From: an uncultured Atribacterota bacterium
GTDB taxonomy: Bacteria; Atribacterota; Phoenicimicrobiia; Phoenicimicrobiales; Stramentimicrobiaceae
NCBI GenBank assembly: GCA_964485485.1
Contig: CAZAJW010000234.1
Coordinates: 1-60,813 of the forward strand
Direction: 5' to 3'
Length of the DNA: 60,813 bases
In this document: positions 4,436-60,727 of the stretch, piece by piece
How positions within the stretch are numbered: position 1 is the stretch's first letter
Layout of the letters: the number at the start of each line of letters is the position of its first letter
Program-made: the position numbers and the translations under genes
The notes under the pieces: model-generated
Databases searched by the model: none
Seen by the model: the letters and a program-made list of their open reading frames with translations, nothing else
Told to the model about the DNA's origin: nothing

Positions 4436-4500
4436 AAATAGCGCACCCGCTTATTTAACCATCACCAGCTTCAAAGAAGGTGGTTTTGTTGTTAAATAAA
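4436..4500 (+). repeat. Mosaic intergenic repeat, minimal copy (A-stub fused to E hairpin)
   Basis: AAATAGCGCACCCGC is joined directly to TTATTTAACCATCACCAGCTTCAAAGAAGGTGGTTTTGTTGTTAAATAAA. The copy lies between the atpI stop (4521) and the atpK start (4391). Strand is the A->E reading direction. Confidence 0.8.
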
Positions 4501-4520
4501 CTCATCTAAAAAGATTTTTT

Positions 4521-6512
4521 TTATTGTATTTTTTCCTCTACTTTAGTATATATTGTCTTGAGATTAAACGGTTTAAAGGCAACTCCTCCAGCTTGATAAA
4601 ATTTTGTGAAAAATTCTACATATTGTAGTCTGGCATCATGAATAAAAGCGCTTAATCCACTAATTAATAAGTTAAAAACATGTCCAATAAACAATATGAT
4701 TAAAGTCAAAAATATTCCTATATAGGGCACATTAGCCATCGTGGCAAGCATATTAAACATGGTGGCAATTATACCTGTGGCTAAACCTAGTGCGAACAAT
4801 CTAGAATAGGAAAGAACATCACTGAAATATCCTGTAATATTATATAAAGATAGTATCCCGCTACCAATTCTCATTATAATATTCTTGTTTGTCCTTCCTT
4901 GGGTAAAGATGAGTGTAAGGACACCAATTATCAATAGAAACCATGCTATTTTACCAAAAATCGGGGCTAGCATTCCTTGCACTAAAAGCAAAATAATGCC
5001 TGTTAATAAAATTAACCATGATATTTGATCCATAAGCCCATCTATTAATCTATCTTTTTTTAGATTATCTAAGAATTTTAAAATAATTCCCATATAAACT
5101 TGTATGACCCCCAAAGAAAGACTAAAAATCAAAAGCGGAATAGGATTGTCTGTTGGGTCAAATAAGGAAACTTTCTGAACCAAGAAATATCTTATATTAT
5201 CAAATATAGGTGGCAAATAACTTAAAATATCTCCAAACCAGCTACCAACGACTATTCCTCCAAATATTCCGGCAATTCCGCAATAATAAAGCAATCTGAA
5301 GAACTTTCTAGCACTACCTTCCAAACCCAATTTATTAATGGCAAGATAGCATAAAATAGCCATAACAGCACCATAACCAACATCGGAGAGACAGAATCCA
5401 AAAAAGATAAAATAGAATATTGAAAGAATTGGAGTCGGATCCATCTCAAAATAATTTGGAAGACTATAAAGCTCAGTTATTACTTCAAAGGGCTTAACAA
5501 ATTTGTGATTGTCTAAAGAAACAGGAACCTGGTCATCTTTATTTGGTTCAGAAAAATAGGCTTCATAAGCCTTGAAATGTTCTTTTAATCTACTCTGTAG
5601 TCTAGAAATATCTTTTTCACGTATCCAACCTTTTATTACAAAGGATTGTTCACTTTTTTTCAGATATTCTGAAACCTCTTCTTTTTCTTTGTTAATCGAT
5701 AAGAAATCATAAATTTTGTAGATTGATTGATTATTTTTAAAAATATCTTTTAACTCTAATTCAATTTTTTTTCTTCTTTTGCTAATATCACTTAATTCTT
5801 TTGAAATTTCTTTTAATATTTGAATTGGAGATCCAGAAAAATTATAATTATATTTATAAATTTCAAAGTGGTATTTCTGAGCAATTCGCTGTATTTCCTC
5901 AATATTTTCTTTTACACTAATAACAATAATATTAGATTTGTTTTTTTCTTCTTTTATAGTTTGGATAACATTTAATTTACTATGTTGTTTTACTTCATTG
6001 AAAAAACTATCCAGATTGTTTTTAGCTATTGAACCCAAGAGATATCTGACATATTTTGACTGATTAATTGTGCTTAAATCAAGTTCTAACTCTTTCCAAT
6101 CCTTGAGTTCCAGTTCGATAGCCTTTAACTTATTTTCCTGTAGCTTAAGATTATTAAGCTCATTATCAAAATCTTTACATTGCTGATATAATTCGTTATA
6201 TTCCAATTGCTGTGATAATTCAACTAGCTTAGTATAATCTAATGTTTCTTTTGAAGAAAACAATGATTTTAATCCATTATTTTTTTCTTCTTGGTAATTA
6301 GAAAGAAGATCAATGCAAAATTTAACCTTGTTTAGTTCTGCGGATATATTAGCATCAAGATTCTCTTCAATATTTTCCCAATCATGAAATACAGTTTTTT
6401 TGCTGATATGTATAATTTCAACAGAACCTAATTTTTGCAATTCCTCTAGCAACTGTTCTTTTATTGATAAGTGTGCAAAAATATGGAATTTATTTACTTT
6501 AGATATTGCCAT
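4521..6512 (-). CDS. atpI: V-type ATP synthase subunit I (a-subunit, stator/ion channel)
   Basis: 663 aa with a cytoplasmic coiled-coil N-half and a multi-TM C-half. Its operon position is upstream of K. Confidence 0.85.
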   Translation of the reverse strand: MAISKVNKFHIFAHLSIKEQLLEELQKLGSVEIIHISKKTVFHDWENIEENLDANISAELNKVKFCIDLLSNYQEEKNNGLKSLFSSKETLDYTKLVELSQQLEYNELYQQCKDFDNELNNLKLQENKLKAIELELKDWKELELDLSTINQSKYVRYLLGSIAKNNLDSFFNEVKQHSKLNVIQTIKEEKNKSNIIVISVKENIEEIQRIAQKYHFEIYKYNYNFSGSPIQILKEISKELSDISKRRKKIELELKDIFKNNQSIYKIYDFLSINKEKEEVSEYLKKSEQSFVIKGWIREKDISRLQSRLKEHFKAYEAYFSEPNKDDQVPVSLDNHKFVKPFEVITELYSLPNYFEMDPTPILSIFYFIFFGFCLSDVGYGAVMAILCYLAINKLGLEGSARKFFRLLYYCGIAGIFGGIVVGSWFGDILSYLPPIFDNIRYFLVQKVSLFDPTDNPIPLLIFSLSLGVIQVYMGIILKFLDNLKKDRLIDGLMDQISWLILLTGIILLLVQGMLAPIFGKIAWFLLIIGVLTLIFTQGRTNKNIIMRIGSGILSLYNITGYFSDVLSYSRLFALGLATGIIATMFNMLATMANVPYIGIFLTLIILFIGHVFNLLISGLSAFIHDARLQYVEFFTKFYQAGGVAFKPFNLKTIYTKVEEKIQ

Positions 6513-6513
6513 T

Positions 6514-6825
6514 TTAATTCACCAAATTATCTAATATCATTTCAATTGCCTGATTGCATTTCTTTTTAAAATCATTTCTAAGTCTTTCTTTTTCATTTTT
6601 GCTATTTTCAAGAATTTCTTTTGCTTTTTGTTGAGCTTTTTTTGTTCGGTCTTCTATCATGTCCTGACCCTTTTGATTCCATTCCTTGATTGCATTGTTT
6701 TTAATCTTTTCTTGTTTATCCTTTTCCTCTTGAACCATTCTTTGGCCTTCTTTTTTTGCATCTTCAATCATTTTTACTGCTTCATGTTCAGTATCTTTTA
6801 ATTCTTTTATGATTTTTTTTAACAT
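6514..6825 (-). CDS. V-type ATP synthase small stalk subunit (G/H-like)
   Basis: 103-aa Lys/Glu-rich coiled-coil protein. It is the first gene of the operon and ends 1 nt before subunit I, matching the position of subunit H (archaeal) or G (Thermus). No catalytic motif is available to confirm it. Confidence 0.55.
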   Translation of the reverse strand: MLKKIIKELKDTEHEAVKMIEDAKKEGQRMVQEEKDKQEKIKNNAIKEWNQKGQDMIEDRTKKAQQKAKEILENSKNEKERLRNDFKKKCNQAIEMILDNLVN

Positions 6826-6886
6826 ATTAATCTACTCCCAAAAAGGACTAATTTAATAATTTATAAATACAGTATTATTATTCAAT

Positions 6887-6981
6887 AAATATCGCACCCG
6901 CAGAGCGGGTGGTTTCAAAGACCTCTGAAAGAGGTTTAATTTTTTACCACATTAGAAGGAGGTTGTTTATGGTTAAATAAA
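6887..6981 (+). repeat. Mosaic intergenic repeat, short copy (A + B + 3' half of E)
   Basis: It reads AAATATCG-CACCCG-cagag-CGGGTG-G, then ACCTC-tgaaa-GAGGT plus a T-run, then ..AGAAGGAGGTTGTTTATGGTTAAATAAA. Confidence 0.85.
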
Positions 6982-7210
6982 AAAAATATATTAAATAAAA
7001 CAATACACTTTAGAAAAAATATCATAAATAACTATTTAAGTCAATTTTACAATTGTATCAATAAAGATATTATTATTGAAATTTAAATACCTTGAATTTA
7101 GGTTAGTTCTAACCAATATTTAATGTTTGTCAATTATTAATATGAGCTATTATTCTTTTTAAAATAAAATCCATATAGGTATCTAAAATGTTTCTTTAAA
7201 CTAAAAAAGT

Positions 7211-7381
7211 AAATATCGCACCCGCAGAGTGAGTGGCTTTAATATTTCTTCAGCAATACAACTTCCAACTTAGGACTTCAGATAAAAAATGTATCTAGCT
7301 TATATTAATCTTTTTATGGTAAATCCATTTATTTAACTATTATTACCTTCTTAGAAGGTAGTTTTCCATGGGTTAAATAAA
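7211..7381 (+). repeat. Mosaic intergenic repeat (A + distal C + D + E)
   Basis: It begins AAATATCGCACCCGcagagTGAGTGG. Next comes ..AATATTTCTTCAGCAATACAACTTCCAACTTAGGACTTCAG..ATCTAGCTTA..TTTTTATGGTAA... It ends with the E hairpin TTATTTAACTATTATTACCTTCTTAGAAGGTAGTTTTCCATGGGTTAAATAAA. Confidence 0.88.
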
Positions 7382-7400
7382 ATAAATAAAATTATTTTAG

Positions 7401-8030
7401 TTAATCAGATTTTAATTGTTTTACAATGTCAAGATACATTTGTAACCTTTTTTTGGCACCTTCAATAATACCATATTTTTCTTCTTTTATTCTTTGTGTT
7501 AAATTATGCAACTTTACTTTGCTGACCCTATAGTCATACTTTTTTACAACTTTGGTGATTGCTAACTCAAGACCATACTTCAGTAAATCCATATTGGGGA
7601 TTGCATCAATAATTTGTCTTTTAATTGCTCTCTGTCCAGAAAGATAAGGCATTAAGAATTGGGGTAAATCCGTTAGTAATCTTCCCTGGGTAAAAATACC
7701 GAGAGTCATATCGGCAGTATTTTCTCTTATGGGGTTTATTAAAGCATAAACATGTTCATTATTTAATCCGATTAAATCAGCATCTAAGAACAACAATATA
7801 TCAGAGTCAGTTTTTTCAAATCCTCTTTTAATTGCCCCTCCCTTGCCAATATTTTCTTTCATCTGATAAACATCTACATTTAATCCACGTGCAATAGCTA
7901 CCGTATCGTCAGTTGAACCATCACTTACTACAATGATATCATTAATTTCGGGAACATTTTTTACTGTTTTGATTACATCTGCAATAGTAATTTCCTCATT
8001 GTAAGCAGGTATAATAACTGATATTTTCAT
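7401..8030 (-). CDS. Family 2 glycosyltransferase (GT-A fold, dolichol/polyprenol-phosphate glycosyltransferase-like)
   Basis: 209 aa with MKISVIIPAYNEE..., VVSDGSTDDT and LDADL (DxD) motifs. SD AGGTGA lies 4 nt upstream of the ATG. It is monocistronic and bracketed by repeat copies. Confidence 0.75.
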   Translation of the reverse strand: MKISVIIPAYNEEITIADVIKTVKNVPEINDIIVVSDGSTDDTVAIARGLNVDVYQMKENIGKGGAIKRGFEKTDSDILLFLDADLIGLNNEHVYALINPIRENTADMTLGIFTQGRLLTDLPQFLMPYLSGQRAIKRQIIDAIPNMDLLKYGLELAITKVVKKYDYRVSKVKLHNLTQRIKEEKYGIIEGAKKRLQMYLDIVKQLKSD

Positions 8031-8047
8031 CTATTCACCTTTTTTGG

Positions 8048-8178
8048 GAGTATTTTTTAGTTTTTTCTTTCGTTTTTTTATTTATTCTTTAGCTATAATA
8101 TTCCTTAAGCAATAGTACTTCCAACTTTGGACCTCAGGCAAAAAATTGTATCTAGCTTATCTCAATCTTTTTATGGAA
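8048..8178 (+). repeat. Mosaic intergenic repeat, partial (C + D only)
   Basis: ..TTTTTCTTTCGTTTTTTTATTTATTCTTTAGCTATAATATTCCTTAAGCAATAGTACTTCCAACTTTGGACCTCAGGCAAAAAATTGTATCTAGCTTATCTCAATCTTTTTATGGAAAA. It fills the spacer between the ispG stop and the GT2 start. Confidence 0.85.
8095..8124 (-). promoter_or_regulatory. Sigma-70/SigA-like promoter carried by repeat module C, positioned to drive the GT2 gene
   Basis: The minus strand reads TTGGAA (8124-8119), an 18-nt spacer, then TATTAT (8100-8095), about 60 nt upstream of the GT2 ATG at 8030. The same TTGGAA-17-TATTAT occurs in the 36605 copy (36739-36711) and TTGGAA-18-TATTAA in the 7211 copy. Confidence 0.4.
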
Positions 8179-8186
8179 AATTAAAG

Positions 8187-9281
8187 CTAATCAAGATGAA
8201 GATTATTAATATTATTTTTAGAAATATACCTAGCCTCTTCTATCAACTTAGTCACGGATTCTTCTTTGTTGTACCGGCCAATTAATTGACCTTTTTTATA
8301 AAGCATAGCTTCTTGGTTATTGAAGGCAATTCCGATATCGGCAGATTTCGCCTCACCGGGACCGTTTACAACACAACCCATAATTGCAATAGTAAGGGGC
8401 TGACGGATATCACATAAACTACTTTCTATTTGTTTACCAATATCATGAATGTTAACCTTACATCTTCCACAGGTAGGACATGAAATAATATTAATACCTC
8501 TTTTTCTGATTGCTAGTGAACGTAAAATATCATGTCCCACTAAAACTTCCTGAATAGGATTACCGGATAAAGACACTCTTATGGTATCACCAATTCCTTT
8601 AAACAATAATACACCAATTCCTATCGCAGATTTTGTAATACCCTTTCTATCAAAACCAGCTTCTGTGATACCAATATGCAAAGGATAGTCAGTTTTTTCA
8701 GCAATGATTTGATTTGCTTTGATGGTATCTATAACATCGCTAGATTTAATGGATAGAATAATGTTATTATAATTAATTTTTTGTAAAAAAGAAATCAAAC
8801 GATCTGTTTCTTCAACCATTGCTTTAAAATTTGGTTTATCGTACTTTTCCATAATGCTCTTGTCAAGTGAACCCGAATTTACCCCAAAACGAATCATAAT
8901 ATTCTTTTTCCGGGCTTCTTCGATGATATGAATTATTTGTGATTCTTTCTTTATATTACCCGGATTAATTCTTATACCCTCAACATTATTTTTTATTGCT
9001 TCTAAGGCTATATTGGAGTTAAAATGGATATCAGCCATAATAGGAATGTGGGTTTTTTCTTTGATAATTGGAATAAAACGACAAGAATCAATATCGGGAA
9101 TAGCAATCCGAACCAAATCACATCCAGCTGATTCTAATTGTTTAATTTGTTTGATAGTTGTGCTAGTATCTTTAATATTGCAATTGGTCATGGATTGTAC
9201 AGAAACAGGGTGCTTGCCACCAATTTTTAATCTACCAATTTGCACAATTTTACTTTTTCTTCTATTAATATTCTCAGACAT
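8187..9281 (-). CDS. ispG: 4-hydroxy-3-methylbut-2-en-1-yl diphosphate synthase (GcpE)
   Basis: 364 aa with a TIM-barrel N-domain and the Fe-S cysteine pattern CPTCGRC ... GCVVNGPGE. Confidence 0.93.
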   Translation of the reverse strand: MSENINRRKSKIVQIGRLKIGGKHPVSVQSMTNCNIKDTSTTIKQIKQLESAGCDLVRIAIPDIDSCRFIPIIKEKTHIPIMADIHFNSNIALEAIKNNVEGIRINPGNIKKESQIIHIIEEARKKNIMIRFGVNSGSLDKSIMEKYDKPNFKAMVEETDRLISFLQKINYNNIILSIKSSDVIDTIKANQIIAEKTDYPLHIGITEAGFDRKGITKSAIGIGVLLFKGIGDTIRVSLSGNPIQEVLVGHDILRSLAIRKRGINIISCPTCGRCKVNIHDIGKQIESSLCDIRQPLTIAIMGCVVNGPGEAKSADIGIAFNNQEAMLYKKGQLIGRYNKEESVTKLIEEARYISKNNINNLHLD

Positions 9282-9315
9282 TATTTAATCCTAATTATTA
9301 TTTTAATCCTAATTA

Positions 9316-10377: not shown

Positions 10378-10430
10378 TTTATATTTCTCCTCTTAAATAA
10401 TGATTTGTTTATTACTTATTTATCAATCTT

Positions 10431-11600: not shown

Positions 11601-11638
11601 GAGAATAATTTTTACTCCATTTTTTTAACAAAATAATG

Positions 11639-13178: not shown

Positions 13179-13200
13179 TTTTTACCTTTATTATTTTATA

Positions 13201-13264
13201 AAAAAACCCCCATTTTATTCTAAAAAATAATACAATATTTATAACTACAATAGGTAAAAGGGGG
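13201..13264 (-). terminator. Terminator-like hairpin plus T7 run between frr and uppS
   Basis: On the minus strand CCCCCTTTTA (13264-13255) pairs with TAAAATGGGGG (13217-13207, one bulged A) across a ~37-nt loop. TTTTTTT follows, 22 nt upstream of the uppS ATG. Confidence 0.3.
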
Positions 13265-13367
13265 AATAAGTGATATATTCAATATTCAATAGCTATTTAT
13301 ATAATCTTTAATGAACCTCCGGTTATAATAAGGGTTAAAAATAAAAAATAATAGAAATAGTTTATTT

Positions 13368-17777: not shown

Positions 17778-17789
17778 AATTTTCCTCCA

Positions 17790-36604: not shown

Positions 36605-36797
36605 AAATATCGCACCCGTTTAGCGGGTGGTTTAAAAAACCCTAGAAGAGGTTTAGTTTTTTGCTACTTTTTAGCTATTTTTCTTTCGATTTTTTATTTA
36701 TGCTTAAGCTATAATATTTCTAAGCAATATAACTTCCAACTTTGGGCTTCAGGTGAAAAATTACCATCTAGCTTACCTTAATATTTTTATGGTAAAA
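36605..36797 (+). repeat. Mosaic intergenic repeat (A + B + C + D, no E)
   Basis: This is the best-preserved A-D copy. It begins AAATATCGCACCCGtttagCGGGTGG...CCCTAGAAGAGGTTTAGTTTTTT. It continues ...CTTTCGATTTTTTATTTATGCTTAAGCTATAATATTTCTAAGCAATATAACTTCCAACTTTGGGCTTCAGGTGAAAAATTACCATCTAGCTTACCTTAATATTTTTATGGTAAAA. Confidence 0.9.
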
Positions 36798-36813
36798 ACA
36801 TTTTAACAAAGTT

Positions 36814-36841
36814 ATAGAGTGTCAGAATATTGACACTCTAT
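36814..36841 (-). terminator. Candidate intrinsic terminator downstream of rpmF
   Basis: Perfect 11-bp stem ATAGAGTGTCA / TGACACTCTAT with a 6-nt loop, about 68 nt after the rpmF stop. The minus-strand tail is only moderately T-rich. Confidence 0.45.
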
Positions 36842-38364: not shown

Positions 38365-39660
38365 ATGGAAACATTAGGCATTATTGCTGAATATAATCCT
38401 TTTCATAATGGACATCTATATCATTTGCAAAAATCAAAAGAGATAACCGGGGCTAAGCATAGTATTGCTATAATAAGCGGGAATTTTCTTCAAAGGGGAG
38501 AGCCGGCTATTTTAGACAAATGGACTCGTACTATAATGGCTTTAAAAGCTGGGATTGATCTTGTTATTGAGATTCCATTTGTTTTTGCAAGCCAAGATGC
38601 CCGTGGATTTGCTCATGCCGGTATTCAACTTTTGAATTATTTGGGTATTGTAGATTGTGTTTCTTTTGGTTGTGAGGAAAGCCAAATAGCATGTTTAAAT
38701 GAATTAGTAGAGTTGTTAAAAAAAGAACCACTCTATTTCCAAAAAATACTAAAGGAAGAGGTAAAAAAAGGTGAAAATTACCCAAAAATACGGGAGAAGG
38801 CAATAGTAAAATATTATAAGAAGTTTGGAACTAAATTTAAAAACAATTCAATAGAGAAATTGAAAGAACTATTAAAACAACCAAATAATGTTTTGGCTTT
38901 AGAATATATGATATCTTTAAAAAATACAAATAGCTCTATTAAGCCATTTCCAATCAATCGTATCGGTTCAAACTATTTACAGGATAAATTAGAAGGGAAA
39001 TATTCCAGTGCTACTGCAATAAGAGAAAGAATATTTAAAAATATTTTTAATAATAACCCTATTCCTTTAGAAGGATTAAGCCCATCTATGCCTGTTTCTT
39101 CATATCAAATAATTCTAGATGAACTAAAAAAAGGCATTAATCCTATTACAATATCATGTTTTGAACAGGGAATTTTTAGCCAATTAAGAAGAATGCCAAT
39201 TGAAGAAATCAAAGAATTGCATGGTATTCAAGAAGGATTAGAAAATAGGCTAAAAGAAAGTGCAATATCATCTTTTAACATTGAAAATTTAATACAAAAA
39301 ACTAAAAGTAAACGCTATACCAGGACCAGAATACAAAGGATATTAGTTCATAGTTTATTTAATTTGAAACATAAAGAGATTGTGGCTTTTAACAATAAAG
39401 GTCCTCTCTATTGTCGGGTTCTCGGCATGACAGAAAACGGCAAAATGTTACTTAAAAGAATTAAATCGAAATCAAAATTGCCTATTATTATTAAATTAAA
39501 TAATTTTTACCAACAAAATAAATTTAGTGGAGATGTGATAGTACAAAAAATGTTAAATTACGATATATTGGCTACCAACCTATATGTATTAGGGTATAAA
39601 CTTAAAATGGCCAGAGTAGGAGCCCAGGATTATACCAGGAAAATTATAATTTTACCATGA
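38365..39660 (+). CDS. tmcAL: tRNA(Met) cytidine acetate ligase TmcAL (YlbM/UPF0348 nucleotidyltransferase)
   Basis: 431 aa with the N-terminal GIIAEYNPFHNGHLYHL HIGH-like motif. It neighbours coaD/rsmD as ylbM does in Bacillus. The TGA stop shows the standard code is in use. Confidence 0.85.
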   Translation: METLGIIAEYNPFHNGHLYHLQKSKEITGAKHSIAIISGNFLQRGEPAILDKWTRTIMALKAGIDLVIEIPFVFASQDARGFAHAGIQLLNYLGIVDCVSFGCEESQIACLNELVELLKKEPLYFQKILKEEVKKGENYPKIREKAIVKYYKKFGTKFKNNSIEKLKELLKQPNNVLALEYMISLKNTNSSIKPFPINRIGSNYLQDKLEGKYSSATAIRERIFKNIFNNNPIPLEGLSPSMPVSSYQIILDELKKGINPITISCFEQGIFSQLRRMPIEEIKELHGIQEGLENRLKESAISSFNIENLIQKTKSKRYTRTRIQRILVHSLFNLKHKEIVAFNNKGPLYCRVLGMTENGKMLLKRIKSKSKLPIIIKLNNFYQQNKFSGDVIVQKMLNYDILATNLYVLGYKLKMARVGAQDYTRKIIILP

Positions 39661-39838
39661 TAAAGATGAAGAGAAGCTATCTGACAATTTTTCACCCGAA
39701 GGCCAAAACTAGCAGTTAAATTGCTTAGAATTATTCAGTTATAATATAAGAAAAAAGCCGAACAAAAAAAGTAACTAAGAAAAAGTTGAACCCCTTTTAG
39801 GGACTCTTAAAGCAACCTGCTTAGCGGGTACGATATTT
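39650..39838 (-). repeat. Mosaic intergenic repeat, inverted copy (D-C-B-A as read on the plus strand)
   Basis: The plus strand reads TTTTACCATGATAAAGATGAAGAGAAGCTATCTGACAATTTTTCACCCGAAGGCCAAAACTAGCAG...CCCCTTTTAGGGAC...AACCTGCTTAGCGGGTACGATATTT. It fills the whole spacer between the convergent genes tmcAL and coaD and overlaps both stop codons. Confidence 0.88.
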
Positions 39839-40315
39839 ACTGAATTTTATTTTCAATTGTTTGGCAACATATGCCGGTACTAAATCGCTGATACAACCAT
39901 TTAAAGAGGCAATTTCTTTGACTATGCTGGAGTTAAGATAAGAGTATTTTGTACTTGTTACCATAAAGACTGTTTCAATTTCCGGAGCCATTTTCTTATT
40001 AATAAGAGCAAATTGAGACTCGTATTCGAAATCAGAAATTGCCCTCATACCTCTCAATATTACATTTGCCTTATTTGAACGTACACAGTCGATTAATAAC
40101 CCATCAAAAGACTGGACTTCAATTCCTTTTAAATCTTTAACTACTTTATTAATCATAACTTTTTTTTCTTCAATGGAGAAAAAAGATTTTTTACGTGAAT
40201 TTTCTGCAATAACAACAATTACTTTATCAAATATATTGCTTGCCCTTTTAATAATATCAAGATGCCCATTAGTAATTGGATCAAAACTTCCTGGATAGAT
40301 GGCTTTTATCATCAA
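39821..40315 (-). CDS. coaD: Phosphopantetheine adenylyltransferase
   Basis: 164 aa with YPGSFDPITNGHLDI. The last six codons plus the stop lie inside repeat module A. Confidence 0.95.
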   Translation of the reverse strand: MMIKAIYPGSFDPITNGHLDIIKRASNIFDKVIVVIAENSRKKSFFSIEEKKVMINKVVKDLKGIEVQSFDGLLIDCVRSNKANVILRGMRAISDFEYESQFALINKKMAPEIETVFMVTSTKYSYLNSSIVKEIASLNGCISDLVPAYVAKQLKIKFSKYRTR

Positions 40316-40893: not shown

Positions 40894-41030
40894 AATATCA
40901 CCTTTTGAAATATTTTATGTTATTAAAACAATTTTAAATAATATTATCTGTTTGCTTGATTAATGTTACTCAACTATGATAAAATATATTTTGTAATTTT
41001 TCAAGAATATATTATCTGGAGGAAATAATT

Positions 41031-41293: not shown

Positions 41294-41339
41294 AAAAGAT
41301 TATCAAAAATTAATTAATTTCTGATAATCTTTTTTTATT
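41294..41339 (+). terminator. Candidate intrinsic terminator of rpmB
   Basis: Perfect 12-bp stem AAAAGATTATCA (41294-41305) / TGATAATCTTTT (41322-41333) with a 16-nt loop, followed by TTTTATTT. Two smaller AAAAGATT-type hairpins precede it. Confidence 0.55.
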
Positions 41340-41440
41340 TAATCATGAAAAAAGATATAGAGCAGCTATCTGACAATTTGTCATCTGATAAACCTCTTTT
41401 AGGAATTCTTAAAACTACCTGCTTTATAGGTGCGATATTT
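41340..41440 (-). repeat. Mosaic intergenic repeat, inverted short copy (D fragment + B + A)
   Basis: The plus strand reads ..ATCATGAAAAAAGATATAGAGCAGCTATCTGACAATTTGTCATCTGATAAACCTCTTTTAGGAATTCTTAAAACTACCTGCTTTATAGGTGCGATATTT. It lies between the rpmB terminator and the ispH stop. Confidence 0.82.
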
Positions 41441-42299
41441 ACTGATTCATCTGAAATATTTTTTTTATCCTATTAATTACACTTTCAGTGATATAATCAG
41501 GGGTAGAAGCTCCACTGGTAATTCCGATTTTATTCTTTTCTTTAAACCAGTTTTTCTTTATCTCTTGGGCTGTTTCGATATGATGTGTGTCTACACCTAT
41601 TTTTTTACTTAATTGGGCTAAGCGGGTAGTATTAGCACTATTTAATCCACCAACTACAATCATTAAGTCCACTTTCTTAGCTAATTTTCTAGTTGAGTTT
41701 TGTCTTAGACTTGTTGCCTTGCATATTGTATTAAAAATCCTTAATTCCTCAACGTTTTCAAATATTTTGGAAATTATTTGCTTAAATTCTTCTTTATCTT
41801 TAGTTGTTTGTGAGATTAATCCAATTTTACTTTTATCACTAAACGAATAGTCTTTAATGTCATCAATGGATTGGAAAACCTTAGCATTAACATTATTGTA
41901 ACTCAATAAGCTTTTTATTTCAGGGTGGTTAGTGTCACCAAAAATTATAATTTGGTAATTTTCTTTTCTTAAAAGATCTGTAATTTGATGTAATTTTTTA
42001 ACATAAGGGCATGTTGTGTCAATGAGTTTGAGATCATGTTTTTTCGCCAATTGTCTTTCATGATATGAAATGCCATGAGCTCTGGTAATAAGATATTTGT
42101 GAAAGGGAACCTGCGAAACATCCTGAACTATGTGAACTCCTTTTGATTCAAATTCACTTATAACTTGGGGGTTATGGATAATTTCTCCAAGCATGTAGAT
42201 ATTGTCATTTTGTATTTCTTTTAGCAGCTGGTTCGCCTTGTTAATTGCTCTTTTTACCCCGAAACAAAAACCAATGTTTTGGGCTTTAAATATTTCCAA
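41439..42299 (-). CDS. ispH: 4-hydroxy-3-methylbut-2-enyl diphosphate reductase
   Basis: 286 aa with GFCFGVKRA and conserved Cys residues for the 4Fe-4S cluster. The stop codon straddles the end of a repeat copy. Confidence 0.94.
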   Translation of the reverse strand: MEIFKAQNIGFCFGVKRAINKANQLLKEIQNDNIYMLGEIIHNPQVISEFESKGVHIVQDVSQVPFHKYLITRAHGISYHERQLAKKHDLKLIDTTCPYVKKLHQITDLLRKENYQIIIFGDTNHPEIKSLLSYNNVNAKVFQSIDDIKDYSFSDKSKIGLISQTTKDKEEFKQIISKIFENVEELRIFNTICKATSLRQNSTRKLAKKVDLMIVVGGLNSANTTRLAQLSKKIGVDTHHIETAQEIKKNWFKEKNKIGITSGASTPDYITESVINRIKKIFQMNQ

Positions 42300-49450: not shown

Positions 49451-49634
49451 AAATATCGCACCCGCATAGTGCGTGTCTTTAAGTACCCCCAAAAGAGTTT
49501 TATTTTAGCTCTTTCTTCTTTCGATTTTATTTATACTTTAGCCAGAATATTTCTTAAGCAATATAACTTTTGACTTTGGACTTCAGGTAATAAATTATTA
49601 GATAGCCTATCTTAATCTTTATTTATGGTAATAC
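49451..49634 (+). repeat. Mosaic intergenic repeat (A + B + C + D, no E)
   Basis: AAATATCGCACCCGcatagTGCGTG...CTTTCGATTTTATTTATACTTTAGCCAGAATATTTCTTAAGCAATATAACTTTTGACTTTGGACTTCAGGTAATAAATT..AGATAGCCTATCTTAATCTTTATTTATGGTAAT. The pdp stop follows 5 nt later. Confidence 0.88.
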
Positions 49635-49638
49635 TATT

Positions 49639-50967
49639 TTAGTTAAGTTTTTTTAATCCACATTTATCAATGACAGCTAATAACAAGGGTTCTTCTTCCG
49701 GTTTTTTATCAATAATGTGAAAAGCATTCTTTGCTATATTTTTTGCATTAAAATATCTTTTTTCATCATTAAAATATAGTGTTGCTAAAGCCTCTTTTAA
49801 ACTTACGTAATCACCTTTTTTCTTTTTTAATATTATTCCGACAGATAAATCTACTTTTGCATCTTTCACTTCCCTGCCTGCTCCCAGGGCCATAGAAGCT
49901 TCACCAATCATGCGTGCATCAACTACATCAATAAATCCATTTCTTTCAGAATATATATTTTTTTTATACTTTGCTTTCGGTAATAAATCAGTGCTGTCTA
50001 TTTGCCTTATATCACCATTTTGGCTTTTTACTATTTGCCTGAATTTTCCTAATGCCTTACCATTTCCTAAAACCTCTTTTAGTATATTAACTCCATCTTT
50101 TGGATTACTAATAACTTCAGCTGCCATTAACATGTATGACCCTATACAAAGACAAAGTTCTCTTAAATCATCAGGACCTTGATTATTTAATAATGCAATT
50201 GCTTCTTCTATTTCAAGAGAATTGCCAATTGCATATCCCAGGGGTTGATCCATCGAGGAAACAATTGCATAAGTAGCTTTATTATTATTTTCCCCAATAT
50301 TAACCATTGTTTTGCCTAACAAAATGGCATCATTAATATTTTTTATAAAAGCTCCCTTACCAACTGTTATATTTAAAACAAATGCATCTGCCCCACCAGC
50401 AATCTTTTTGCTCATAATACTACTGGCAATCAGGGGAATGCTGTCGATGGTACCCGTAACATCTCTTAAGGAATATATTTTTTTATCTGCTGGTGCAATA
50501 TTAATATTGGCACTGATAATCGAGGCGTTCACATCTTTAACAATTTCAATAAACCTTCTAATAGAAAGATTGGTTTTAAAGCCATTTATTGATTCTAATT
50601 TATCAATAGTTCCACCAGTATGACCTAATCCACGACCAGAAATTTTAGGAATCGGAACACCTGCAGCAGCAACCATTGGTAACAATGCCAGAGAAGTTTT
50701 ATCTCCAACACCTCCTGTGCTATGTTTATCAATTTTTTTCCCAGATATTGAGCTTAGATCTAATGTTTCACCTGATTTAGCCATGGTTATAGTCAAATCA
50801 TTAATTTCCCGTTCAGTCATTCCATTAAACCAAATAGCCATAAGAAGTGAGGACATTTGATAATCTCGTATTTTTCCGTTTAAGTAATTATCAATAATAA
50901 ATTGTATTTCTTCTGTAGATAGCGCTTTGTTGTTCTTTTTTTTCTCAATAATTCCGATAATATTCAC
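49639..50967 (-). CDS. pdp: Pyrimidine-nucleoside phosphorylase
   Basis: 442 aa with HSTGGVGDKTS and full-length Pdp/DeoA similarity. It uses a GTG start with no obvious SD. Confidence 0.93.
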   Translation of the reverse strand: MNIIGIIEKKKNNKALSTEEIQFIIDNYLNGKIRDYQMSSLLMAIWFNGMTEREINDLTITMAKSGETLDLSSISGKKIDKHSTGGVGDKTSLALLPMVAAAGVPIPKISGRGLGHTGGTIDKLESINGFKTNLSIRRFIEIVKDVNASIISANINIAPADKKIYSLRDVTGTIDSIPLIASSIMSKKIAGGADAFVLNITVGKGAFIKNINDAILLGKTMVNIGENNNKATYAIVSSMDQPLGYAIGNSLEIEEAIALLNNQGPDDLRELCLCIGSYMLMAAEVISNPKDGVNILKEVLGNGKALGKFRQIVKSQNGDIRQIDSTDLLPKAKYKKNIYSERNGFIDVVDARMIGEASMALGAGREVKDAKVDLSVGIILKKKKGDYVSLKEALATLYFNDEKRYFNAKNIAKNAFHIIDKKPEEEPLLLAVIDKCGLKKLN

Positions 50968-51036
50968 AACAGAAGTAGTCAGAGGACTAGATGTCCCTGA
51001 AATCCTTTCAAAATAATATTTTAACTTATTACAGTG

Positions 51037-51275
51037 AAAATCGTACTCGCATAGCGGGTAGATTAAGAGCCTTTAAAAGAAGTTTATCTTTTTTTTACTC
51101 TTTTTCTTTTTTCGATTTTTTGTTTATATTTTAACTATACTTCTAAGAAATATTGTTTTATATTTTGAGTTTCAGGTGAAAAATTGTTAGATAGCATATC
51201 TTAATTTTTATTTCTGACAAAACTATTTTATTTAACCATTACCAACTTTTAAGAAGTTGGTAATGGTTAAATAAA
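51037..51275 (+). repeat. Mosaic intergenic repeat, full-length copy (A-B-C-D-E)
   Basis: All five modules are present. The A hairpin is TACTCG-catag-CGGGTA (51044-51060). E is a perfect 21-bp inverted repeat, TTATTTAACCATTACCAACTT (51228-51248) with AAGTTGGTAATGGTTAAATAA (51254-51274). Confidence 0.9.
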
Positions 51276-51282
51276 TATAATA

Positions 51283-53247: not shown

Positions 53248-53402
53248 TTTTGACTCCTTTTATATTAATAAAATTTATACAGCCAATACATATAAATATA
53301 AGTAAAATTATAATTATTTTCTATATAAACTATAAATGGATAAAATAATTATAAATCAATATTACTATTAATATAATATTATTTTATCACATTTAAAATT
53401 AC

Positions 53403-53445
53403 AAGGTGGTTCCCATATTTCTAAAAAACAAAAGGAAACCACCTT
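53403..53445 (-). terminator. Candidate (bidirectional) terminator downstream of ppdK
   Basis: On the minus strand AAGGTGGTTTCC pairs with GGGAACCACCTT (12 bp, one G.U) across a 19-nt loop, about 60 nt after the ppdK stop. T-rich tails occur on both strands. Confidence 0.5.
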
Positions 53446-53502
53446 ATTTTTACTACACAAATATATGAAAATATAAATATATGTGATTATTGATTTTTTG
53501 TT

Positions 53503-56139: not shown

Positions 56140-56229
56140 TGATTTTAATTCTCCTCTCTTTTATTGTATCAAATAAACAAAAAATGTTTTTTATTAAGAT
56201 AATCTAAAAAATATTATTTTTCAAATAAT

Positions 56230-58353
56230 TCATCTTGATTCACCCTTGGCAAGGGCAATCTTGGATAAATCTGCCACACTATAGTACATGTTTGTGATAT
56301 TTTTTAATAGTGCTAAACGATTATTCCTGATTAATTCATCTTTATCCATTACCAACACGCTATCAAAAAACGAGTTAATAGGTTCAGTCATTAATTCTAA
56401 ATAATCAAATATTTTATCATATTCTTGTTTCAAAACTGCTTTTTCAATTTTGTCACTTATTTTAAGGTAATTTTTATAAAGAATATCTTCTTCTTTTTCT
56501 TGAAATATTGTACAGTTTATCTCATTTGTTCGGGCATTTTTGGACAAGTTAAACGTTCTTGTTGCTGCGGTAATAATTTTATTGAATTTCGTATAGTTAT
56601 ATATATTTTGAATCACCTTTATTCTTAACAACGTATCGATAATAGTTGGAGGACTTTTTACTAAAACAGCATCAATTACATCGTAATTATAACCTCTTTC
56701 AATAAGTAAATATCGAAATCTTTGAAAAATAAAATCTTTAATTTTAAAAGCCAATTCATTATTATTTATACTATTTTTTAAAATGTTGTTTTCTTTTAAT
56801 AATAACTCAATGTTTAAATTAATAATCTCATCCAGGGGAAAATCCATATTGTTAAAGATAAGAGTATTTATGATGCCCAAAGCTTGCCTTCTCAAGGCAT
56901 AAGGATCTTGAGAACCATCAGGAATATTATTATTGACAAAACATGCTGTAATATTATCGATCTTATCGGCGATACTTAGAATTTTACCACTAATTGTTTT
57001 AGGTAAATCATCATCTGAAAATCTTGGTAGATAATGCTCAAAGATACTTTCTGCAACTTGCCTATCTTCTCCTTGCAAAATTGCATATTCTTTACCCATA
57101 ATACCTTGTAATTCAGGGAATTCCTTAACCATCTCAGTAACTAGGTCCGACTTGCATAACTGGGCTGATCTTTTTATTACTTCTAATTGATGATTAATTA
57201 ATTGTATTTTTGTTCCAATTGCTTCTACTAAAGCAATTAATCTTTCTACTTTATTAAACATAGAACCCAAATTTTCTTGATAGACAATATTTTTCAGCTT
57301 TTCCAAATTATTATCAAGTGGTTTTATGTTCTTAGCGGTAACTTTTTGGTCTTCTTGATAGAAAAACCTGGCATCTTCCAATCTAGCTTTTAAGACTTTC
57401 TCATTACCACGAATAATAATGTCTTTATATTTATCTTCATTACCATTAATTACAACGAAAAAATATGGCAATATGTATCCTTCTTTCGAGTAAGCAGGAA
57501 AATATTTTTGATGTTTTATCATCACAGATTTTAATACTTCAGAAGGTAATTCTAAGTAATTTTTATCAAATTGACCCAGTAAAACTCGTGGATATTCAAC
57601 TAAATTCTTTACTTCATCAAGCAATGTTTGGTTTATATAATCTCTTCCGGATATGCCTTTGGTTATTTCCTTAATTTGATTAGATATTATTTTTTTTCTT
57701 TCATCAGGGTCAATAATTACAAAACAATTATTCATTATTTTAAAATATCTATCTACTGAATTTATTGATTCGGATTTTGGAGAAAGTAAACGGTGACCAA
57801 AGGTATTACAATCAGAATTTAATTTTTCTAAATTAAAATGAATGATTTTATCATTGTATAGAGCTAATAACCATCTTATTGGTCTTATAAATCGGAAAGA
57901 AACATCACCCCATCGCATGGACTTAGGAAAGTTTAAACTAACAATTACTTTGAGAAGTATTTCTGGAAGTAAGGTCTCGGTTTTTTTACCTTTTACTATT
58001 TTTTGGGCAAATAAATATTCACCTTTTCCTGTTTTTTCTATTATAAGTTTTTCCACTTCTATATTATTAGCTTGAGCAAATTTTAGTGCAGGTTTTCGGG
58101 GATTACCATCCTTGTCAAAAGAAATATTTTTTGAAGGACCTTTAACTTTTTTAAAAATATCTTCTTGCTGAGAATTTATATTTTCTATATAAACGATAAG
58201 TCTTCTAGGTGTACCATAGGTCTTGATATGACTATATTCAATATAAAACTTTCTTAACTCATTTCTGGCAAGGCTTCTTAAGTCAGTTAGCGCTTTGTCT
58301 ATATATATAGAAGGTATTTCTTCTGTACCTATTTCCAAAATAACTTTATTCAT
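56230..58353 (-). CDS. glyS: Glycine--tRNA ligase beta subunit
   Basis: 707 aa starting with LEIGTEEIPS, immediately after glyQ with no gap. Confidence 0.95.
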   Translation of the reverse strand: MNKVILEIGTEEIPSIYIDKALTDLRSLARNELRKFYIEYSHIKTYGTPRRLIVYIENINSQQEDIFKKVKGPSKNISFDKDGNPRKPALKFAQANNIEVEKLIIEKTGKGEYLFAQKIVKGKKTETLLPEILLKVIVSLNFPKSMRWGDVSFRFIRPIRWLLALYNDKIIHFNLEKLNSDCNTFGHRLLSPKSESINSVDRYFKIMNNCFVIIDPDERKKIISNQIKEITKGISGRDYINQTLLDEVKNLVEYPRVLLGQFDKNYLELPSEVLKSVMIKHQKYFPAYSKEGYILPYFFVVINGNEDKYKDIIIRGNEKVLKARLEDARFFYQEDQKVTAKNIKPLDNNLEKLKNIVYQENLGSMFNKVERLIALVEAIGTKIQLINHQLEVIKRSAQLCKSDLVTEMVKEFPELQGIMGKEYAILQGEDRQVAESIFEHYLPRFSDDDLPKTISGKILSIADKIDNITACFVNNNIPDGSQDPYALRRQALGIINTLIFNNMDFPLDEIINLNIELLLKENNILKNSINNNELAFKIKDFIFQRFRYLLIERGYNYDVIDAVLVKSPPTIIDTLLRIKVIQNIYNYTKFNKIITAATRTFNLSKNARTNEINCTIFQEKEEDILYKNYLKISDKIEKAVLKQEYDKIFDYLELMTEPINSFFDSVLVMDKDELIRNNRLALLKNITNMYYSVADLSKIALAKGESR

Positions 58354-59229
58354 CTATAATTCCTTTTTTAATAGGGGATATCCTAATTTCTCTCTTTGCT
58401 CAATATAATATTTTGCACATAGTTTAGCCAATTCCCTTACTCTTGAGATGTAGCCGGTTCTTTCGGTAACACTAATTGCGCCCCTCGCTTCTAAAAGATT
58501 AAATGTATGAGAACATTTTAAAGCATAATCATATGCAGGTATTGCTAATTTTTTTGAAATAAGTTGGAGCGATTCTTTTTCAAATATTTTGAATAAGGAA
58601 AACAACATATTTACATCAGCTTCTTCAAAATTGTATTTAGACTGTTCGAACTCTGCTTGATGCTGTATTTCCCCATAAGTAATATTTTCACTCCAAAGAA
58701 GATTATATATGTTTTCCTTTTGTTGTACTACCATAGCAAGCCTTTCTATTCCGTAAGTGATTTCTATGGATACGGGATTTAAATCAATTCCACCAGCCTG
58801 TTGAAAATAAGTAAATTGGGTAATTTCCAAACCATCTACAATAACTTCCCAACCTAAGCCCCATGCACCTAATGTCGGAGCCTCCCAATCACCTTCCATA
58901 AACCTAATATCATGTTCTCTTCTATGTATACCAATTTGATCAAGACTTTCTAGATACAAATCCTGTATATTTTCAGGAGAAGGTTTTATAATAACTTGAA
59001 ATTGATAATGCTGTTGAACACGATTGGGATTTTCACCATAACGACCATCAGATGGTCTCCTGGAAGGTTCAACATAAGCAGTTTTCCATGGTTCTGGGCC
59101 GAGAACACGTAGAAAAGTAGCAGGATTCATTGTACCTGCACCAACTTCAGTGTCATAGGCATTTAAAATAATACAACCTTTTTCACTCCAATATTTTTCT
59201 AAGTTAAAAATTATTTCCTGAATATTCAA
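58354..59229 (-). CDS. glyQ: Glycine--tRNA ligase alpha subunit (TTG start)
   Basis: Strong GlyQ similarity ([26 protein letters not shown]). The tracked ORF starts at ATG 59289, but homologues begin at the position of TTG 59229. That gives (M)[13 protein letters not shown] against Bacillus MNIQDMILTLQKHW (from memory), with AAAAGGA upstream. Confidence 0.92.
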
Positions 59230-59273
59230 ATATATAGTCCTTTTTTCTAATATAATTCTTCTAATATAAACAA

Positions 59274-59332
59274 AATCCCTCTCCACCATGTTATGCTATT
59301 TATCTATATACAAGTTTCTATCGAGAGGGACT
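59274..59332 (-). promoter_or_regulatory. glyQS leader hairpin with trailing T-run (possible attenuator)
   Basis: On the minus strand AGTCCCTCTC (59332-59323) pairs with GAGAGGGATT (59283-59274) across a ~39-nt AT-rich loop. The 3' arm runs directly into TTTTGTTT. The element lies between the candidate promoter and the TTG start. Confidence 0.3.
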
Positions 59333-59345
59333 TTTTATCCTTATA

Positions 59346-59374
59346 AATATAACAAAATCATTTTATGATGTCAA
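59346..59374 (-). promoter_or_regulatory. Candidate SigA-type promoter of glyQS
   Basis: The minus strand reads TTGACA (59374-59369), a 17-nt spacer (tcataaaatgattttgt), then TATATT (59351-59346), about 115 nt upstream of the glyQ TTG start. Confidence 0.5.
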
Positions 59375-59661
59375 AAAAAGATTAAGAAAATTTAATATAT
59401 TAAAACATTTATTCCTACTTATTTTAGCATCAAGGCAATAACATCTTCCCTGAGATATTATTCGAGGCCCCAAAAATATGTAATATAGTTTTGAAATATA
59501 AAATAAAGCGATACTATTATGCTATCCAATCCCTTAATTAAGACCCAAATATATAGGAAGTTAGTTTTTAAGATGAAGCATCTTATCCCAAGGGTTCTCA
59601 GGAGGAAATATTCGTCTCGAATATCCTGAAAAGAATCTTTTTGGCAATCGCGTATTTAATA

Positions 59662-60423
59662 TTACTTAATTGTTTTTATTCTATCTATAAATTGTTTGGT
59701 TTTATTTTCTATTTCAAAATGATATAACATATATCGATTTGTGATTTCTACTAATTCGCCTAATTCAGATTGTGAAACTTTTTTATTATGAATCATTGAT
59801 AAATCAGCAGCTAATACCCTTTTTAATAATCTCAGGCAATAATCAGTTATTTTAATCTGATAGTAATTGTTATTCAATTGACAGGAACTACAGATTAAGC
59901 CTCCTTTTTGAATATCAAAAACATAATATTTATTTTCTTTAATATTGCTATAACAATGAATGCATTTATTTAACTCAGGTTGATATCCTAAAATGGAAAA
60001 TAATTTCCATTGAAAGGATACCAGTAAAAGAGTAGCATTTTTTTCATCTTTTAACAACATTAATACATCTTTAAATAAGATATAAATATATTCATTAGGA
60101 TCTTCATCTTCTGTTATCTTATCAATAATTTCTGCACATTGAATAGCTATCCCATAGTTTATTAAATCTTTGGATTGAAGAAAAAAAGAGCTAATAATTT
60201 CAGTTTGACTTACAATATTTAAATTTTTACCCTTGAAAGCCATTATTTTTACCAGTGTTAAGTTCTCCAGACTACTACCAAATTGGCTTTTTGTTTTTCT
60301 AATACCTTTCGCAATTGCTCTTATTTTTCCATAATGACGACTGAATATAGTTATAATTTTATCAGATTCATTAAGCTTGATATTTTTAAGTACTATTCCG
60401 TCAGTTTGAAATAAACGATTCAT
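59662..60423 (-). CDS. recO: DNA repair protein RecO
   Basis: 253 aa with an N-terminal OB fold (DGIVLKNIKLNESDKIITIFSRHYGK) and a CxxC...CxxC zinc motif. The recO-glyQS order matches Bacillus. Confidence 0.9.
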   Translation of the reverse strand: MNRLFQTDGIVLKNIKLNESDKIITIFSRHYGKIRAIAKGIRKTKSQFGSSLENLTLVKIMAFKGKNLNIVSQTEIISSFFLQSKDLINYGIAIQCAEIIDKITEDEDPNEYIYILFKDVLMLLKDEKNATLLLVSFQWKLFSILGYQPELNKCIHCYSNIKENKYYVFDIQKGGLICSSCQLNNNYYQIKITDYCLRLLKRVLAADLSMIHNKKVSQSELGELVEITNRYMLYHFEIENKTKQFIDRIKTIK

Positions 60424-60493
60424 TGTTTAATCAAAACCCCTATTGTTATAACATTGAAATATTGTATTATATTTCTTTTATGCTCTAGTTATC

Positions 60494-60727
60494 AGATATT
60501 GTCCCCGCATAGCTGGTAGCTCTAAGAACTTCTAAAAGGGGTCAATTATCTGTTTAGTTTTAGTTAACCTTTTTTCTACTATTTTAACTGAAATATTTAC
60601 AAGTAATATAACTCTTTTAGATTTTAGATGAAAAATGATCATATGGATTATCTAGATATTTTTATGGTTAAATTTTCATTTAACCATTACCAACTTCTAA
60701 GAAGGTGGTTTTTCATGGTTAAATAAA
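60494..60727 (+). repeat. Mosaic intergenic repeat, full-length but most divergent copy (A-B-C-D-E)
   Basis: AGATATTGTCCCCGcatagCTGGTAGC...CTTCTAAAAGGGG...TTTTAACTGAAATATTTACAAGTAATATAACTC...TATCTAGATATTTTTATGGTTAAATTTTCATTTAACCATTACCAACTTCTAAGAAGGTGGTTTTTCATGGTTAAATAAA. Confidence 0.85.

Follow-up and report, generated by a model that had tools for sequence, protein, structure and literature searches.

Dispersed intergenic repeats in an Atribacterota genome are very probably gene-less deletion derivatives of an IS200-group insertion sequence

A stretch of 60,813 nt from an uncultured Atribacterota bacterium (GenBank assembly GCA_964485485.1, contig CAZAJW010000234.1, positions 1-60,813; hereafter called the window) carries ten related, non-coding intergenic repeats, which an initial annotation had divided into modules A to E and described as a mosaic. 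These repeats are very probably non-autonomous deletion derivatives of an Atribacterota insertion sequence (IS) of the IS200 group, 569-590 nt in length, that is, miniature inverted-repeat transposable elements (MITEs) of the palindrome-associated transposable element (PATE) type. By analogy with characterised relatives, they are presumably moved in trans by a Y1 (HUH) transposase via single-stranded DNA. Elements of the IS200/IS605 family lack inverted repeats and target duplications, and possess subterminal hairpins that are bound by a dimer of the transposase TnpA. They insert 3' of a specific tetra- or pentanucleotide, excision and insertion occur on single-stranded DNA with a bias for the lagging-strand template, and PATEs are moved in trans (PMC7290912, PMC10055086, PMC3597680). 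Those traits that can be tested in sequence all appear to be present here, the absence of duplication being read from one clean junction.

The ends of the repeats recur on an autonomous IS. The first partner was found on a sibling contig (L107), recovered by a look-up of ribosomal protein L28, in which a gene for a 147-aa Y1_Tnp protein lies between an A+B end and an E end. A search with this protein returned thousands of homologues, the closest clusters being 82-97% identical, and the contigs of the homologue clusters, together with one metagenome scan using an IS-specific pattern, provided nine copies of 569-590 nt at nine different sites in public metagenome contigs (L107, L118, L121, L132-L137). 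An initial tblastn search, with IS608 and IS200 TnpA sequences as bait only, had pointed to a Y1 transposase beside a MITE on contig L012 (see below). The left boundary of the IS is preceded by TTTAT in eight of the nine copies and by TTAAT in the ninth, and the right end is GTTTAC. The left end reads TT(A/C)(A/T)CCTTAAAAAA-CCACCTTC-TTT-GAAGGTGG-TAATGGnTAAAyGGTT..., followed by a 5' untranslated region (5'UTR), the ATG and tnpA. The 3' part of tnpA reads ...GAATTTGGCCTCTTT-TAG-AGGCC, with the stop codon within the hairpin loop, and the right end reads TCTTAAAG-CCACCCGC-TAT-GCGGGTG, followed by a linker of 9-10 nt that ends in GTTTAC.

In a global alignment, the IS and the MITE consensus are nearly identical over about 46 nt of the left end and about 55 nt of the right. 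Module E is the left-end hairpin of the IS, module D corresponds to the 5'UTR of tnpA as far as a start-codon remnant (AGATGACAA), module B is the hairpin over the tnpA stop and module A is the right-end hairpin with its linker; only the start and stop regions of tnpA remain in the MITE. The initial annotation had considered that a match of the consensus to an IS end would tell against its reading, and in substance such a match exists, with both ends matching an IS200-type IS that encodes a Y1 transposase. The 147-aa TnpA matches Pfam Y1_Tnp over its full length (E 7.8e-43), and its sequence shows a His61-Ile-His63 motif and Tyr126. Moreover, a single 2.7-kb contig (L136) carries the IS together with two full-length MITEs, one of which abuts the right end of the IS.

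The initial annotation had likened the repeats to repetitive extragenic palindromes (REPs) and bacterial interspersed mosaic elements (BIMEs), in which short extragenic palindromes are put together in varying combinations and owe their spread to a REP-associated tyrosine transposase (RAYT) encoded by a domesticated single-copy gene. The comparison was reasonable, since REPs likewise require Y1 HUH transposases; in addition, the copies look modular and are intergenic, palindrome-rich, without inverted repeats and apparently without duplications. The likeness does not extend to the transposase itself, which passes the NCBIfam model transpos_IS200 (151.8 bits, cut-off 55) but fails REP_Tyr_transpos (32.2 bits, cut-off 80). 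The tnpA-bearing unit occurs at nine loci with the same boundaries and is therefore a mobile IS rather than a domesticated gene kept in single copy. REP pairs in alternating orientation are lacking, as is a conserved GTAG head, and the modules are always colinear and all come from one 242-nt unit. An origin of the REP/BIME type is accordingly regarded as highly improbable.

Two further observations concern IS200-type elements in these data. A Y1 transposase adjoining a MITE on contig L012 was tried as the partner and rejected, as it is 37% identical to the L107 protein and has its own, different hairpins. The element to which it belongs (L012 1113-1640, Candidatus Oleincola secundus) is a second IS200-type element with hairpins CCCCACCTGTAAAGGTGGGG and CCACGCCTGTAAAGGCGTGG, lying about 12 nt past the right end of the MITE, and at this level of identity it is taken to be unrelated. 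The IS copies on L132 and L133 have the same right flank (TTAYGGGTCGTGTTATGGAATGG...) and different left flanks, which may reflect a rearrangement, or a longer conserved segment that extends past the right end.

The extent of the element became apparent from copies outside the window. A pattern representing module A (AAATATCGCACCCG-N5-CGGGTG, 20 specified bases) was scanned against one genome per species (596 Gb), for which about one chance match is expected. It matched 95 stretches, virtually all of them in Atribacterota metagenome-assembled genomes (MAGs) and covering at least nine species representatives, with Candidatus (Ca.) Oleincola secundus as the richest genome. Searching 624 kb of the pattern-matched loci with nhmmer gave 137 matches, of which 47 are full length. 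The family thus extends across the lineage and is no local duplication, and the proposal in the initial annotation of a genuine dispersed family is borne out. When the 47 intact copies, all from outside the window genome, were aligned with 25-nt flanks, similarity stopped abruptly at ...TAAATATCG and at GGTTAAATAAA..., defining an intact unit of about 242 nt that spans (A/G)TAAATATCGCACCCG... to ...ATGGTTAAATAAA.

On the top strand, this unit begins 3' of the target TTTAT with TTAACCAT, a short linker and the hairpin CCACCTTC-TTA-GAAGGTGG. The interior consists of module D (the tnpA 5'UTR and start-codon remnant) and then about 100 nt of module C; the right part contains hairpin B, hairpin A (CACCCGC-TAT-GCGGGTG) and a 10-nt linker ending in TTTAC. 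The modules had been written on the bottom strand in the initial annotation, whereas the sense of tnpA runs from E to A. Its module E does contain the palindrome, but the last 5 nt assigned to it (ATAAA) are the complement of the target motif, i.e. flank. Folding as single-stranded DNA places subterminal hairpins on the same strand at both ends, with energies ranging from -13 to -24 kcal/mol on the left and from -13 to -19 kcal/mol on the right (z-scores -3.3 to -10.9).

Distances from an A-end to the next E-end peak at 240-260 nt, with lesser classes at 60-80 and 180-240 nt. The short forms (A+E, A+B+E and A+B with the last 19 nt, the minimum being 45 nt) are internal deletions that tend to retain both termini, as would be expected if the termini are what a transposase requires. 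Module order is never permuted among the copies, and the module subsets seen in the window are therefore deletion products. The mosaic is one element of about 242 nt with varied internal and terminal deletions, and not a combinatorial array; the suggestion that it resembles BIMEs or REPs more than a fixed MITE is thus reversed by the colinearity of the modules and by the 47 intact copies found elsewhere. Within several MITE copies (L077 at about 3850-3900, L091, L057 and L085), another small palindromic repeat (...TTCCAGGATATTCAAGGGGAAnnTTCCCCTTGAATATCCCTG...) is nested, which suggests a second miniature element family in these genomes.

In the window itself, a repeat search recovered the ten intergenic copies that had been reported, at coordinates that were right to within about 10 nt, and the division into modules A (hairpin), B (hairpin with T-run), C, D and E (palindrome) and the subset assigned to each copy agree with an alignment of the ten. 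All ten sites were mutually linked by nhmmer queries with single copies (E down to 1e-19). A 242-position profile built only from the 47 full-length foreign copies found exactly these ten sites, with E values of 1e-45 to 1e-6, and no eleventh site in the window. The copies sum to about 1.6 kb, or 2.6% of the window. They are listed below, with strands referring to the transposase-sense (top) strand.

s1, 4436-4500 (profile match 4445-4500), minus strand: half of right-end hairpin A (4436-4450) joined straight to left-end palindrome E (4451-4500), between V-ATPase subunits I and K; profile positions 185-242, E 1.3e-10.
s2, 6886-6981, minus strand: right end (hairpins A and B) with the distal arm of the left-end palindrome, interior deleted; profile positions 1-60 and 202-242.
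s3, 7210-7381, minus strand: hairpin A, part of C, D and complete E, with both termini present and B and part of C deleted; profile positions 1-35 and 101-242, E 1e-25.
s4, 8048-8180 (profile match 8059-8180), minus strand: interior C and D only, both termini gone; profile positions 62-184, E 5.5e-18.
s5, 36605-36805, minus strand: right end (A, B) with C and D, left-end hairpin E lost; from alignment, profile and sibling comparison.
s6, 39647-39839, plus strand (inverted relative to the majority): D, C, B and A present, left-end hairpin lost; from alignment, profile and sibling comparison.
s7, 41339-41441, plus strand (inverted): first 8 nt of the left end, then a D remnant, B and A, with the target TTTAT at 41334-41338; from the profile and a filled/empty pair.
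s8, 49451-49646, minus strand: A, B, C and D present, left-end hairpin lost; from alignment and profile.
s9, 51037-51275, minus strand: full length (A to E) with a degenerate hairpin A; profile positions 3-242, E 2.4e-39.
s10, 60494-60727, minus strand: full length with a degenerate hairpin A (TTGTCCCCGCATAGCTGGTAG); profile E 9.8e-45.

Both ends are kept only in s3, s9 and s10, all of which have mutated A hairpins. Since most of the window copies lack an end or have mutated hairpins, they are considered old, immobile relics; s4, without either terminus, is unable to move. Some window copies have orthologues in other genomes. The s8 orthologues in Ca. Oleincola secundus (L033) and in L126 each have their own different deletion, s9 has an orthologous copy in L033, and s10 is orthologous to an intact copy of Ca. 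Oleincola secundus (L023 262-530). On a Mono Lake contig that is 99% identical to the window at the nucleotide level over the overlap (L001 2708-2937), hairpin B is deleted within the s10 counterpart, and relic copies are therefore still eroding within the population.

The insertion site is best seen at s7, for which a filled/empty pair is available. The empty sibling reads ...TCTTTTTTTTAT / TGATTC and the window reads ...TCTTTTTTTAT / TTAATCATG...GCGATATTTAC / TGATTC, with slashes at the boundaries; over a longer stretch the readings are ...AATCTTTTTTTTAT / TGATTCATC for the empty site and ...AATCTTTTTTTAT / TTAATCATG...GGTGCGATATTTAC / TGATTCATC for the window. The insertion thus lies 3' of a TTTAT that is present in the empty site, no duplication accompanies it and the boundary is fixed to within one T. 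TTTAT, with 95 MITE instances, is by far the commonest pentamer before TTAACCAT. Where the left pentamer deviates (TTGAT, GTTAT or AGTAT), the right-end pentamer does not change in parallel. The two pentamers thus do not co-vary, as the flanks of L048, L079 and L098 illustrate, which argues against reading the resemblance between TTTAT and the terminal TTTAC/T as a target duplication. In tandem arrangements, the next element starts directly after the TTTAY of the preceding one.

These junctions also bear on whether the repeats could be MITEs of another class, such as DDE elements with inverted repeats and duplications, or derivatives of IS110-type or IS91-type elements. A clean s7 junction without duplication is not what a DDE element would leave, and the absence of terminal inverted repeats noted in the initial annotation holds across the 47 aligned copies, the ends of which (TTAACCAT... 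and ...CGATATTTAC on the top strand) are not complementary. Moreover, both ends match an element whose sole gene encodes a Y1 transposase, and no other transposase was found between any pair of left and right ends in 624 kb, where long pairs enclose ordinary genes. The small size and high copy number of the repeats would suit another class of MITE, as would a duplication-like 12-nt repeat at one site (see below), yet such an origin is judged extremely improbable.

With the repeats read as IS200-group derivatives, a route of transposition can be proposed from IS608 and ISDra2. A TnpA dimer, supplied in trans, would bind both top-strand hairpins on single-stranded DNA at the replication fork. 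Cleavage after TTTAT and after TTTAC would free a single-stranded circle, which would then rejoin the lagging-strand template on the 3' side of a new TTTAT. Such a route would account for the tendency of the top strand to follow the majority gene direction. The transposase-sense strand is co-oriented with co-directional flanking genes in 60 of 69 copies, and it is the locus-majority strand in 96 of 112, including 10 of the 14 in convergent or divergent spacers. In the window, a GC skew of -0.14 on the plus strand suggests that the minus strand is the leading strand. The right end carries, on its top strand, AAAG beside the hairpin and a terminal TTAC 10 nt beyond the hairpin foot. TTAC is the cleavage site at the left end of IS608, where it is paired with a guide. 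That guide is AAAG (PMC3597680), and the match of the two motifs to the IS608 pair is regarded as a resemblance only.

Several observations weigh against the assignment to the IS200 group or against parts of the proposed mechanism. No cognate tnpA was found in the window, where tblastn with TnpA gave zero matches in agreement with the initial annotation, or in the retrieved Mono Lake contigs and the 624 kb of nine MAGs. None of the nine IS copies, from cluster look-ups and the metagenome pattern scan, comes from a Mono Lake sample, and no left/right end pair in the 624 kb encloses a transposase. Mobilisation in trans in this particular genome is therefore no more than presumed. The 10-nt right-end linker is CGATATTTAC in the MITE as against GGTTGTTTAC or G/CGTGGTTTAC in the IS. 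No similarity could be detected between module C and the interior of the IS. The left and right hairpins have no more than a CCACC core in common, whereas those of IS608 are nearly identical as a pair, and covariation between guide and cleavage site among the copies (AAAG with TTAC, AAAA with TTAT) was not supported. A base-exact junction comes from one filled/empty pair only, that of s7, the other pairs being blurred by deletions. At the insertion between rsmD and rpmB (L124 8381-8640, also in L126 and L128; window 40920-40945), the element is followed by 12 nt (AGTTGTATTTTA) that imperfectly repeat its left flank (AATTGTTTTA); this resembles a target duplication, a feature not expected for IS200/IS605. 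Finally, s6 and s7 are in the minority orientation, and the strand bias is consistent with insertion into the lagging-strand template, although local transcription is confounded with replication direction.

Comparison of related genomes indicates how the family has behaved over time. Seven siblings (L104, L108, L110, L111, L124, L126 and L128) have an identical ribosomal protein L28 and show 91-92% DNA identity to the window. The L28-identical siblings are without s7 and s5, but possess a full-length copy in the rsmD-rpmB spacer, a site that is unoccupied in the window. L124 and L128 are among those with an empty s5 site, and their s6 orthologues have different deletions. In a species about 72% identical in the region (L065), the s6 site is empty and the fapR-rpmF spacer holds an independent insertion that differs from s5 in position and is oriented the opposite way. 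The empty sites of s5 and s6 do not give exact junctions, since the window copies have lost their left ends and some flank. The copies orthologous to s8, s9 and s10 in Ca. Oleincola secundus have different deletions. The 28 intact copies of that genome have a mean identity of 70% and a maximum of 93%, whereas two copies at different loci of one MAG (L008 and L024) are 100% identical. Taken together, the filled/empty differences, the decayed orthologous copies and the identical pair show that the family is old, comprises several subfamilies and has been recently active in at least one lineage. The window holds one copy per 6 kb, and in the sampled loci, once the seeding copy is set aside, further copies occur at about one per 20 kb; density elsewhere in the Atribacterota is about one copy per 5-20 kb of sampled DNA, similar or lower, with the per-genome number being an extrapolation.

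The window has a base composition of 30.5% G+C and consists of densely packed housekeeping genes, nearly all on the minus strand. They include the V-type ATPase operon, ispG, SMC, fapR, pta, coaD and ispH, in addition to genes for a tRNA nucleotidyltransferase, pyrimidine-nucleoside phosphorylase, membrane pyrophosphatase and PPDK, and glyQS and recO; no tRNA or tmRNA genes were found in the window. The RecO protein is identical to that on Mono Lake metagenome contigs, namely the 60-kb JGI 3300001533 MLSed_10001240 and one of 3300001335, and the organism is related to Ca. Oleincola, as an Atribacterota bacterium of the Mono Lake metagenome. The copies were confirmed as non-coding, with no open reading frame (ORF) of at least 80 aa within any of them. 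Nevertheless, some alter the ends of adjacent genes. Copy s7 lies within the last sense codon and stop of ispH (window 41439-41450; L124 at about 9032-9045). The gene ends ...AAT CAA TAA in the empty sibling and ...AAT CAG TAA ATA TCG in the window, and the protein is unchanged, the Gln and stop codons being regenerated because the terminal TTTAC of the element mimics its TTTAT target. Copy s6 (window 39821-39841 and 39640-39660) furnishes the final six codons of coaD together with its stop (...FSKYRTR*), and the stop of a plus-strand gene for a HIGH-motif nucleotidyltransferase, which ends ...ILP as against ...ILDN in L124; the C-termini of both proteins have therefore been altered by insertion. 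Public assemblies call a 43-aa ORF across s7 (L102 1515-1646; window at about 41345-41476), which is made up wholly of MITE sequence plus the end of ispH and can almost certainly be dismissed as spurious. A strong hairpin (ATAGAGTGTCAGAATATTGACACTCTAT, window 36814-36841) some 65 nt past the stop codon of rpmF is conserved in siblings; it is distinct from the MITE and resembles the native terminator of rpmF.

The position of the copies raises the question of a regulatory role. The left-end palindrome is often 30 nt or less from a stop codon; that of s9, for example, begins 8 nt past the end of the pyrophosphatase gene. In the window, 45-71 nt separate the right end from start codons. The E palindrome and the A hairpin were called terminator-like, with T-rich tails, on both strands. 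Given that the left-end palindrome usually follows closely on a stop codon, an additional role in termination or in the stabilisation of mRNA 3' ends is probable for some copies. Module C of one subfamily contains a TTGGAA-N17-TATTAT match that points out through the right end towards downstream genes. No promoter is claimed from it, the hexamer match occurring at chance frequency for AT-rich DNA (mean of 1.8 per region in shuffled sequence); being at chance frequency and confined to one subfamily, it leaves a regulatory role as a secondary possibility only.

Such signals, together with the retention of s8, s9 and s10 at orthologous sites in Ca. Oleincola secundus, could also be ascribed to a host-encoded family of functional RNAs or regulatory sequences (terminator and promoter cassettes, or a small RNA gene) conserved by selection and not by transposition. 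Close relatives vary in the presence and absence of copies, however, and one spacer has received independent insertions in opposite orientations. The window copies are decaying, with lost ends and mutated hairpins, the downstream genes are functionally unrelated and the termini belong to an IS. In addition, no Rfam family matches at the gathering score anywhere in the window, in line with the initial annotation, which had recognised no such family, and a permissive Rfam scan of one intact copy gave sub-threshold hairpin noise only. A host-encoded family is therefore very unlikely, although exaptation of individual copies is possible as a secondary effect. A bolder proposal would treat module C as acquired cargo and the MITE as a portable terminator-plus-promoter cassette or small-RNA gene that has rewired operon boundaries across this class of Atribacterota. 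Its basis is the sigma-70-like match in one subfamily, the palindrome behind stop codons and the retention of copies at orthologous sites since the species split, and it is considered unlikely.

The identification of the repeats as very probable derivatives of an IS200-group element supplies a name and a proposed mechanism for a sequence that makes up about 2.6% of the window, in a largely uncultivated phylum. Literature searches for Atribacterota together with IS200 or intergenic repeats returned no relevant paper. The new points are the host phylum, the copy density, the tnpA-only parent of about 570-590 nt and an interior unmatched in that parent; no new biological category is opened. In practical terms, the copies break assemblies, and the autonomous IS is seen on short contigs only. 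They also create spurious ORF calls and change gene ends (the coaD and nucleotidyltransferase tails and the ispH stop). Their presence or absence provides markers for the tracking of strains and species, and a possible use lies in the mining of a compact, tnpA-only system with a defined TTTAT target.

Among known systems, several share features with the Atribacterota repeats. The REPs and BIMEs of E. coli and Pseudomonas, with their RAYTs, are likewise abundant extragenic palindromes that depend on a Y1 HUH enzyme, often lie just downstream of genes and may affect termination and mRNA stability. REPs differ in being 20-40 nt in length, with a GTAG head, alternating orientation and a single-copy RAYT, whereas a 242-nt unit with two unlike ends is found here. 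The BOX and RUP elements of pneumococci and the Correia elements of Neisseria are also small, abundant, structured intergenic repeats with variable modules and possible promoters or terminators. In contrast, RUP and Correia elements have inverted repeats and duplications, BOX is without a known transposase, and none of them has IS200-type ends.

Closer parallels exist within the IS200/IS605 family. Elements of the IS200 group contain tnpA only and measure about 0.6-0.7 kb. In common with the Salmonella IS200, the Atribacterota IS encodes a Y1 HUH transposase of about 147 aa in its single gene, tnpA, has a strong left-end hairpin upstream of tnpA and a structured 5'UTR, and lacks inverted repeats and apparently also duplications. 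The left-end hairpin of IS200 terminates incoming transcription. The two elements differ in end sequences and target (TTTAT here) and in length (569-590 nt as compared with 707 nt), and here the gene-less derivatives far outnumber the IS. With IS608 of Helicobacter pylori and with ISDra2, the Atribacterota elements share subterminal hairpins, insertion 3' of a tetra- or pentanucleotide and a putative right-end cleavage site 10 nt past the hairpin foot. Their orientation bias would be compatible with insertion into the lagging-strand template. They differ in the absence of tnpB and in left and right hairpins that are less alike than those of IS608.

The closest counterparts are the PATEs, which are ends-only derivatives of IS200/IS605 elements described in Haloquadratum walsbyi, Halanaerobium hydrogeniformans and Geobacillus stearothermophilus (PMC3119063, PMC7290912, PMC10055086). 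As in those species, the repeats are non-coding, consist of hairpin-bearing IS ends only, have no inverted repeats and are presumed to be mobilised in trans by TnpA. Their sizes are 45-260 nt, as compared with about 271 nt in H. hydrogeniformans. Differences lie in the parent, which here is a tnpA-only element of the IS200 group with no tnpB or guide-RNA remnant, in the copy density, which is high at 10 copies in 61 kb and 47 intact ones in the 624 kb sampled, and in the standard form, the interior of which includes about 100 nt not derived from the known parent. By sequence criteria, the Atribacterota repeats would therefore be placed among the PATEs, and not with the REP/BIME elements or the DDE-type MITEs.

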